From: Escherichia phage Pu-Krd-SF3
Length of the DNA: 64,000 nt
Direction: 5' to 3' (one strand)
Sequence record: PQ249397
Shown: one piece after another, positions 2,086 to 2,140 of the stretch
How the letters are laid out: each line of letters starts with the position of its first letter
Position numbering within the stretch: position 1 is the first letter of the stretch
Notes under the pieces: generated by a model
Database searches by the model: none
Seen by the model: the letters and a program-made list of their open reading frames with translations, nothing else
Told to the model about the DNA's origin: nothing
Program-made: the position numbers and the translations under genes

Positions 2086-2140
2086 GTTTACAAGTCCCTC
2101 GTGTTGTGTTACAGTAGTCTTACTGACATAACATGAGGAC
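2086..2140 (+). promoter_or_regulatory. Early-promoter/stem-loop element copy A (GTTTAC -35-like box, -10-like box, 9-bp inverted repeat overlapping the alc SD)
   Basis: GTTTAC at 2086-2091; arms 2097-2105 and 2130-2138 pair with one G-U wobble; 51 of 54 bases identical to 15021-15075. Confidence 0.6.

Follow-up and report, generated by a model that had tools for sequence, protein, structure and literature searches.

In bacteriophage T4, the Shine-Dalgarno (SD) sequences of e, soc, 49 and I-TevI are held in a helix on transcripts that start upstream, which was established experimentally (PMC3014915). An internal promoter is located within the DNA of the 5' strand, so that the transcripts from this promoter lack the 5' strand and are translated, and the structure is kept in the relatives of T4 (PMC3014915). 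The internal promoter of these genes is a late promoter with the motif TATAAATA and the masked RNA is early or middle, so that translation is delayed. A second type of element is the promoter-early stem-loop (PeSL) cassette. As defined in 2010 (Arbiol 2010, PMC2839356), it joins an intergenic sigma-70-like promoter to a stem-loop, an SD and an ATG, and the stem-loop can occupy any of five positions with respect to −35 and −10. In phi1 and RB49 the most frequent classes have it between these two boxes or across the −10 box. For T4 and PST, the stem-loop is placed just upstream of the promoter in the later description (Comeau 2014, PMC4122927). The PeSL stem-loops were interpreted as terminators or attenuators, and masking of the SD is not proposed in the text considered from the two papers.

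We analysed 64,000 nucleotides of Escherichia phage Pu-Krd-SF3 (record PQ249397), called the window in the following. The phage belongs to the genus Tequatrovirus, and the plus strand of the window corresponds to the minus strand of the T4 reference. The original prediction, made from the sequence alone, was that a near-identical 54-bp element occurs twice about 13 kb apart, each copy with a GTTTAC −35-like and a −10-like box. Both parts were borne out. Allowing up to three mismatches, a search with the 54-nt pattern matched the plus strand exclusively at 2086-2139 (copy A) and 15021-15074 (copy B), where 100 dinucleotide shuffles gave a mean of 0.00 matches. The copies are identical at 51 of the 54 positions and differ at 2101 (G in copy A, A in copy B), 2112 (C/T) and 2117 (G/A). 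Their likeness stops sharply, on the left at GTTTAC and on the right at GAGGA. When the eight early-type cassettes of the window were compared in pairs, 16-39 of the 54 positions were shared. Copies A and B, with 51, therefore have more in common than an extended early-promoter consensus.

Each copy has a TTTACA −35 box, a 17-bp spacer and a TG-extended −10 box (TACAGT in copy A, TATAGT in copy B), followed by the SD sequence GAGGA 7 nt before the annotated ATG (at 2147 and 15082). Both fit the pattern of early (sigma-70) promoters with GTTTAC(A/T) at −35, a spacer of 16-18 bp and TGn-TAnnnT, and the RefSeq record NC_054924.1 annotates a promoter at exactly the same −35 to −10 span. The assignment of the two copies as T4-type early (sigma-70) promoters is supported by their sequence and by the T4 expression class of the downstream genes. 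They resemble the classical T4 early promoters in their −35 box, 17-bp spacer, TG-extended TAnnnT and short A/C-rich leader in front of early genes. They differ from them in the 51 of 54 positions common to both copies, among them the non-consensus spacer and leader, and in the complementarity of the spacer to the leader and the SD.

Table 1. Positions of the two cassettes, their hairpins and the neighbouring genes in the window.
Feature	Position	Strand	Basis
rnlA (gene 63), upstream of copy A	958..2082	+	annotation of 97.8%-identical Aplg8 record; ORF list
Copy A of the 54-bp cassette, −35 to SD	2086..2139	+	pattern search; in 499 phage records
alc early promoter: −35 2087-2092, −10 TACAGT 2110-2115, predicted start A2122	2087..2115	+	consensus match; NC_054924.1 annotation
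Hairpin A: 5' arm 2097-2116 (extension 2092-2097), loop GUCU 2117-2120, 3' arm 2121-2138 (extension 2137-2142)	2092..2142	+	fold
alc SD GAGGA, within the 3' arm	2135..2139	+	sequence, fold
alc (inhibitor of host transcription), downstream of copy A; further in-frame ATG at 2144	2147..2650	+	annotation, ORF list
Late-promoter motif TATAAATA, 21 nt before alt; likely source of late read-through to copy B	12581..12588	+	motif scan; alt late in T4 omics
alt 12609-14660, alt.-1 14664-14849, alt.-2 14846-15049	12609..15049	+	ORF list, annotation
Copy B of the cassette	15021..15074	+	pattern search
alt.-3 early promoter: −35 15022-15027, −10 TATAGT 15045-15050, predicted start A15057	15022..15050	+	consensus match
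Hairpin B: 5' arm 15032-15051, loop 15052-15055, 3' arm 15056-15073; SD GAGGA 15070-15074 overlaps the 3' arm	15032..15073	+	fold
alt.-3, 96 aa, downstream of copy B	15082..15372	+	ORF list, annotation
Bidirectional intrinsic terminator after alt.-3 and gene 54	15377..15398	.	terminator scan; annotated in KJ668714 and DalCa

Copy A is located in the 64-nt gap between the end of rnlA at 2082 and the alc ATG at 2147. The alc product terminates RNA polymerase on cytosine-containing DNA. Copy B follows alt.-1 and alt.-2, the remains of a second alt gene. This gene is complete in AR1 (L072) and DalCa (L073) but has decayed in T4 and in the window. The alt.-2 gene ends within the 5' arm of copy B, and its stop codon TAG (15047-15049) falls inside the −10 box. 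Copy B of AR1 and DalCa comes after two intact alt genes, and the second of these has its TAG directly at the −35 box. If alt.-2 were translated in the window phage, the ribosomes would open the copy B hairpin, which would lead to coupling and not to masking.

In the T4 omics data (PMC9697503 supplement), alc and alt.-3 are classified as early RNA and early protein. The rnlA gene has an early RNA but a late protein, alt is late, and alt.-1 and alt.-2 have a middle RNA with no protein detected. Since alc and alt.-3 are early and the genes upstream belong to later classes, the elements sit at expression-class boundaries. In T4 mutants that escape the CmdTAC defence, Alt.-3 is extended at its C-terminus, and T4 can do without the gene (PMC11618068); the paper mentions alt.-3 but does not address its promoter. 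For T4, dRNA-seq data are available (bioRxiv 10.1101/2024.04.04.588121, GEO GSE255091). In this work alc was among the qPCR validation targets for NAD-capped RNAs, and a +1A start was common to the NAD-capped T4 RNAs. Such a start would fit the predicted A at the two cassettes, without demonstrating it.

The original prediction included a 9-bp inverted repeat whose right arm overlaps the SD. In copy A this repeat is present, with CCTCGTGTT at 2097-2105 pairing to AACATGAGG at 2130-2138 and a wobble pair between G2101 and U2134, but it is merely the base of a longer hairpin that the prediction had understated. The hairpin has 13 bp (2097-2109 with 2126-2138), a 2-nt bulge, another 5 bp (2112-2116 with 2121-2125) and a GUCU loop, and copy A carries an additional extension of 5-6 bp, AAGUCC/GGACUU. 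In total the helix comprises 18-22 bp and spans the promoter spacer, the −10 box, the predicted start and the SD. The folding energies were −25.7 kcal/mol for hairpin A (z = −4.75) and −23.4 kcal/mol for hairpin B (z = −5.0), and none of 200 shuffled sequences was equally stable. The three differences between the copies are all neutral for the structure (G-U versus A-U, C-G versus U-G and one loop base).

The −10 box is located in the 5' arm of each hairpin, whereas the predicted start (A2122 and A15057) and the SD are in the 3' arm. The fold prediction for the RNA beginning at the predicted +1 gave no structure (z = +0.8 to +0.9). In copy A the predicted cost of opening the SD is 7.8 kcal/mol for the read-through RNA versus 1.0 for the promoter-initiated RNA, and in copy B 12.0 versus 1.9 kcal/mol. 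The claim that the left arm lies upstream of the start of transcription thus held for the predicted +1, with the own-promoter RNA unstructured and the SD predicted to be buried in the read-through RNA.

We considered and rejected a reading of the hairpins as intrinsic terminators. Neither is followed by a U-tract (the tails are CUUUAUGAUG and ACACAAAAUG), and both are absent from the list of terminator-like sites. The scan detected the sites at 7732-7753 and 15377-15398. On the plus strand it gave none between rnlA and alc and none between alt and alt.-3, and the site at 15377-15398 is the first one 3' of alt. A scan with the Rfam covariance models over positions 1-17000 (E ≤ 1) gave no match at either element.

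For the start sites, the read-through and the effect on translation, we infer the following order of events. The 5' arm is located in the promoter spacer and the −10 box, and the 3' arm would be made of the first ~17-21 transcribed bases, ending in the SD. An RNA made from the cassette's own promoter (+1 at A2122 or A15057) would lack the 5' arm, present an open leader of 25 nt and be translated. An RNA begun upstream would hold both arms, fold and hide the SD. Such RNAs would come from the nrdB-denA-rnlA transcripts at copy A and from the late alt transcript at copy B. Synthesis of Alc and Alt.-3 would then be limited to the first minutes of infection, when their own early promoters are active, despite the later read-through. 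We hold with moderate confidence that this promoter-dependent translation by masking of the SD would be the best explanation for the cassettes.

The cassettes would resemble e, soc, 49 and I-TevI in that the SD is paired in the upstream-initiated RNA, with a predicted opening cost of 7.8-12 kcal/mol. They are also alike in the position of the promoter, whose −10 box belongs to the 5' arm and whose predicted +1 belongs to the 3' arm, so that the own RNA is predicted to lack the 5' strand. They differ in the timing. Whereas a late internal promoter delays translation in the known genes, the internal promoter of alc and alt.-3 is early and the masked RNA would be the later read-through, which would limit translation to the early period. 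The motif TATAAATA was found in neither element by the motif scan, and the promoters are of the early type. The alc and alt.-3 cassettes would therefore vary a known T4 trick. They are not among the examples in PMC3014915, and part of this arrangement may already have been described in earlier work on T4 (Miller et al. 2003; 1994 T4 book). In the whole window TATAAATA occurred 21 times, compared with 9.2 expected, mostly on the minus strand from 21 kb onward. This excess is consistent with a late structural gene block on the opposite strand.

To follow the cassettes through the genus, a 73-nt copy-A query was used. It matched 499 phage records at 997 places, which is two per genome, T4 included, and both copies are present in nearly all of these related genomes. 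A single base separates the two copies of T4, and some genomes have identical copies. Record MG867727.1 (vB_EcoM-G28) has three matching places where two are usual. An exact-pattern scan of IMG/VR gave only 10 loci. The substitutions within the genus are mostly neutral for the structure; at one pair C-G, U-G and U-A are all found, and at another G-U alternates with A-U. The stem is weakened in two natural variants, copy B of L007 and copy B of DalCa. Pairing reaches 98.6% of the cells within Tequatrovirus. With so little variation, however, the shuffle control is not exceeded and the covariation is not significant. The sense strand folds better than the antisense strand in Tequatrovirus only, and the other genera have no consistent asymmetry. 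The wobble pairs and the strand asymmetry are thus suggestive of a role at the RNA level; the wobble pairs do not prove it, because the preference for the sense strand is not consistent outside this genus.

Since variation was low within the genus, the regions upstream of alc in other genera are of interest and were gathered by tblastn and a search for related loci. In Gelderlandvirus, Karamvirus, Kagamiyamavirus, Jiaodavirus, Dhakavirus and several further lineages, GTTTACA is immediately followed by an anti-SD-like 5' arm in the spacer, and the matching 3' arm ends in GGAGA or GAGGA. The arm sequences vary by genus (CCTCGTGTT, CTCCATTTGG, CCTCATTTTG, CTCCGTTTAG, CCTCATCAG, CTCTCATTTT). Strong complementarity between the 17-nt spacer and its own leader is found in 14 of the 19 alc-upstream lineages (z = −3.5 to −7). 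In an alignment-free comparison of the 19 lineages, the cognate spacer-leader duplexes had a mean of −15.6 kcal/mol versus −8.7 for the non-cognate ones. Twelve of the 19 spacers paired best with their own leader, and the observed total was matched by none of 20000 permutations. A gapless pair table was set up from 17 sequences of the hairpin-bearing lineages, where 89% of the cells pair, compared with 37-49% when the partner was slid; individual columns contain up to five standard pair types and no mismatches. The compensatory change of the arms across the Tevenvirinae genera is strong evidence from sequence comparison that the pairing is under selection. The original prediction had drawn this conclusion from the single G-U pair of copy A. 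The wobble is as it was described and the cross-genus data point to selected pairing, but the argument from one G-U pair is weak.

The hairpin differs in its reach. In at least 10 genera the alc complementarity extends to the SD. It stops short of the SD and is tight over the −10 box in L040, L047, L057 and Tegunavirus, lies wholly within the spacer as a small hairpin in the Mosigvirus-like L019 and L046, in L059 and in L060, and is absent in L044 and L058. In the more distant Acinetobacter phage 133 and Aeromonas phage avDM1, the alc SD is in a hairpin whose 5' arm overlaps the −10/start region. Past the stem, the other genera of Enterobacteriaceae phages examined have A-rich sequence, and a U-run follows the alc hairpin in Acinetobacter phage 133 alone. 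Gaprivervirus (L017, L031, L032, L061) differs in the region ~100-250 nt upstream of alc, where a truncated alc duplicate precedes alc. Here, a G+C-rich hairpin, AAGGGGTGTACAAGCCCCTT, is located upstream of the duplicate and the GTTTAC promoter-hairpin is absent.

The alt.-3 homologues of Dhakavirus, Karamvirus, Kagamiyamavirus, Gaprivervirus, Mosigvirus and Marfavirus have a GTTTACA promoter of their own, with a small in-spacer hairpin of the CACC-AAGGA-GGTG type and a free SD. Among the genomes compared, the alc-type cassette at alt.-3 is specific to Tequatrovirus. The alc version, conserved across the Tevenvirinae, is probably the ancestral one, and the alt.-3 cassette was probably copied from it, from the −35 box to the SD only, replacing a different promoter type. 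The direction from alc to alt.-3 is likely because the alc cassette is orthologously conserved. No similarity was found between the Alc and Alt.-3 proteins, which argues that only the regulatory cassette was copied. A duplication reaching into the coding sequence was ruled out, since the proteins are unrelated and the DNA likeness ends at the SD. Cassette types at alt.-3 and alc differ between genera, and there is a hint that cassette halves may have been swapped repeatedly between the two loci. The alc leader of Dhakavirus VR5 (L020/L045) equals the alt.-3 leader of IME341 (L064) over 32 nt (ACCTTACACAAACATGAGGAGAACATTATGAA), with differing spacers. The Mosigvirus alc promoter (L019/L046, compared with L068) has the alt.-3-type spacer hairpin.

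Other promoters of the GTTTAC type are found in the window at 4762-4815 (cd.2), 8174-8215 (30.7), 63927-63965 and 63207-63260, the latter two at small ORFs near the window end. Their hairpins are tight, with the spacer pairing to the first ~12 transcribed bases across the −10 box, and leave the SD free. The early promoter at 7782-7838, in front of the 30.8 homologue (ATG at 7839), has a spacer TTCCTTTGTG that is complementary to CACAAACAAAGGAG with the SD included. This is an SD-masking design like that of alc and alt.-3 in an unrelated sequence. Just upstream of the promoter at 7783, a strong intrinsic terminator is located at 7732-7753 (GAGGACTCC-TTCG-GGAGTCCTT and then a T-run). The order of terminator and promoter at 7732-7783 is that of the T4/PST PeSL in Comeau 2014 (PMC4122927). 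An Rfam match to Atu_C8 at 7684-7767 was below the threshold (31.4 bits versus a gathering score of 50) and is probably just two hairpins. At 63207-64000 three early cassettes follow at distances of 340-380 bp, each before a small ORF, which is the dense PeSL layout reported from hyperplastic regions.

The spacer-leader complementarity was significant in six of the eight early cassettes of the window (z ≤ −2.9). Placing the promoter within a hairpin may be a design that T4-type early genes follow in general. Such genes would be translated only from the RNA of their own early promoter, and the shutoff of the early promoters would also shut off their proteins despite ongoing read-through transcription. 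We put this forward tentatively, as a possibility that is less likely than not.

Several lines of evidence favour the masking of the SD. The SD appears to be the target of the hairpin, because the alc hairpins use large loops to reach it, whereas the hairpins at cd.2 and 30.7 are tight and stop ~12 nt past the start. The predicted difference in SD opening between read-through RNA (7.8-12 kcal/mol) and own-promoter RNA (1-2 kcal/mol) points in the same direction. So do the lack of a terminator-like site before alc or alt.-3 in the scan, the late-promoter motif before alt, the early classes of both genes in the T4 omics and the same logic established for e, soc, 49 and I-TevI. Further support comes from the cross-genus covariation of spacer and leader and from the SD-containing hairpins of phages 133 and avDM1. 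Finally, the alt.-3 genes of the six other genera have a free SD behind a small in-spacer hairpin, and the Alc and Alt.-3 proteins are unrelated. Other observations count against the masking. These are the four cases where the alc hairpin stops short of the SD, the four where it stays within the spacer and the two that have none, and also the low variation in Tequatrovirus, the stem-weakening variants and the ability of both DNA strands to fold.

Among the alternatives, we first considered the PeSL as originally proposed. Here, the stem-loop would attenuate or terminate the upstream transcription, the cassette would serve as a site of homologous recombination and the overlap with the SD would be incidental. 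The original prediction had assigned the elements to this type and had connected them with module shuffling. The components are present, and the cassettes fall under the broad 2010 definition, since the 5' arm is placed between the two promoter boxes and the −10 box itself is part of the stem, an arrangement found in the most frequent classes of phi1 and RB49. Like these PeSL, they are repeated in the genome, are conserved over tens of bases and have left evidence of movement between loci. The cassette was evidently copied between two loci with boundaries exactly at the −35 box and the SD, and copy B adjoins the variable second alt, intact in AR1 and DalCa but degraded in T4. The alt.-3-type hairpin at the Mosigvirus alc promoter and the 32-nt identity of the VR5 alc and IME341 alt.-3 leaders also speak for this proposal.

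However, the cassettes deviate from the 2014 description of the T4/PST PeSL, because the stem runs from the spacer to the SD; upstream of the −35 box both copies have only weak AT-rich or 4-bp repeats. The alc and alt.-3 hairpins also have no terminator signature, although an attenuation that needs no U-tract might take place. In T4 and the other Enterobacteriaceae-phage genera examined the stem is not followed by a U-tract, with Acinetobacter phage 133 as the exception, and the hairpins were missed by the scan that finds 7732-7753 and 15377-15398. The compensatory arms are left unexplained, since recombination needs sequence identity and not complementarity. Module shuffling is not visible at copy A, which lies between conserved genes: of the 506 records, 496 have at least 80% of the surrounding 2 kb in one piece, with a constant rnlA-alc arrangement. 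It is suggested only at copy B, next to the variable second alt, and recombination products were not seen. Moreover, a deletion between the copies would remove the DNA ligase and other genes. Taken together, we regard the PeSL in its first form as an unlikely explanation.

The hairpin could also act as a processing or stability element. The ~20-bp helix would then be an RNase III-type site or protect the 3' end of the rnlA or alt message, which would uncouple what happens to the cistrons on either side. A helix that is long (about two turns), nearly perfect and conserved by covariation would suit this role. It is located exactly at the expression-class boundary, and the rnlA protein accumulates late from an early RNA. 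However, most lineages accept large loops to bring the 3' arm onto the SD, which this role would not explain, and no Rfam family was matched. We consider this role quite improbable.

Alternatively, the inverted repeat around the −10 box might act at the DNA level and form a cruciform or a single-strand hairpin that modulates promoter opening, replication or recombination. Both DNA strands are predicted to fold (−13.1 and −11.1 kcal/mol for the top strand and −10.1 and −9.8 kcal/mol for the bottom strand), the sense strand is not consistently preferred outside Tequatrovirus, and six of the eight early promoters in the window have a spacer-leader complementarity that straddles the −10 box. In Tequatrovirus, however, the polymorphisms pass through G-U intermediates, which are tolerated in the sense RNA but are mismatched in DNA and in the antisense strand, and the inclusion of the SD would be meaningless for DNA, so that a DNA-level role is very unlikely. 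That the cassettes have no special function and represent an extended early promoter/leader consensus with a recent duplication and a by-product hairpin is hardly credible: T4 early cassettes do share a background of 16-39 of 54 positions and their consensus has a small inverted repeat (TGTG ... CACA), but 51 of 54 is far above this background, the fold z is about −5, the non-consensus spacer covaries with the leader in many genera, and the diversity of the arm sequences argues against a conserved-motif artefact.

If translation from alc and alt.-3 depends on the promoter that made the RNA, T4 would need no dedicated repressor to restrict the two proteins to the first minutes of infection. The textbook switch with a promoter inside a hairpin would be extended from late to early genes, and the stem-loops of the PeSL type would gain a concrete and testable translational role instead of termination. 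The covariation across genera provides a ready set of natural compensatory mutants. As a compact part of ~55 bp in which expression would be set by the promoter that made the RNA, the cassette may be relevant to phage engineering. Should the design rule apply to T4-type early genes in general, it would be the mirror image of the late-gene switch of e, soc and 49 and a previously unlisted layer of temporal control in T4.
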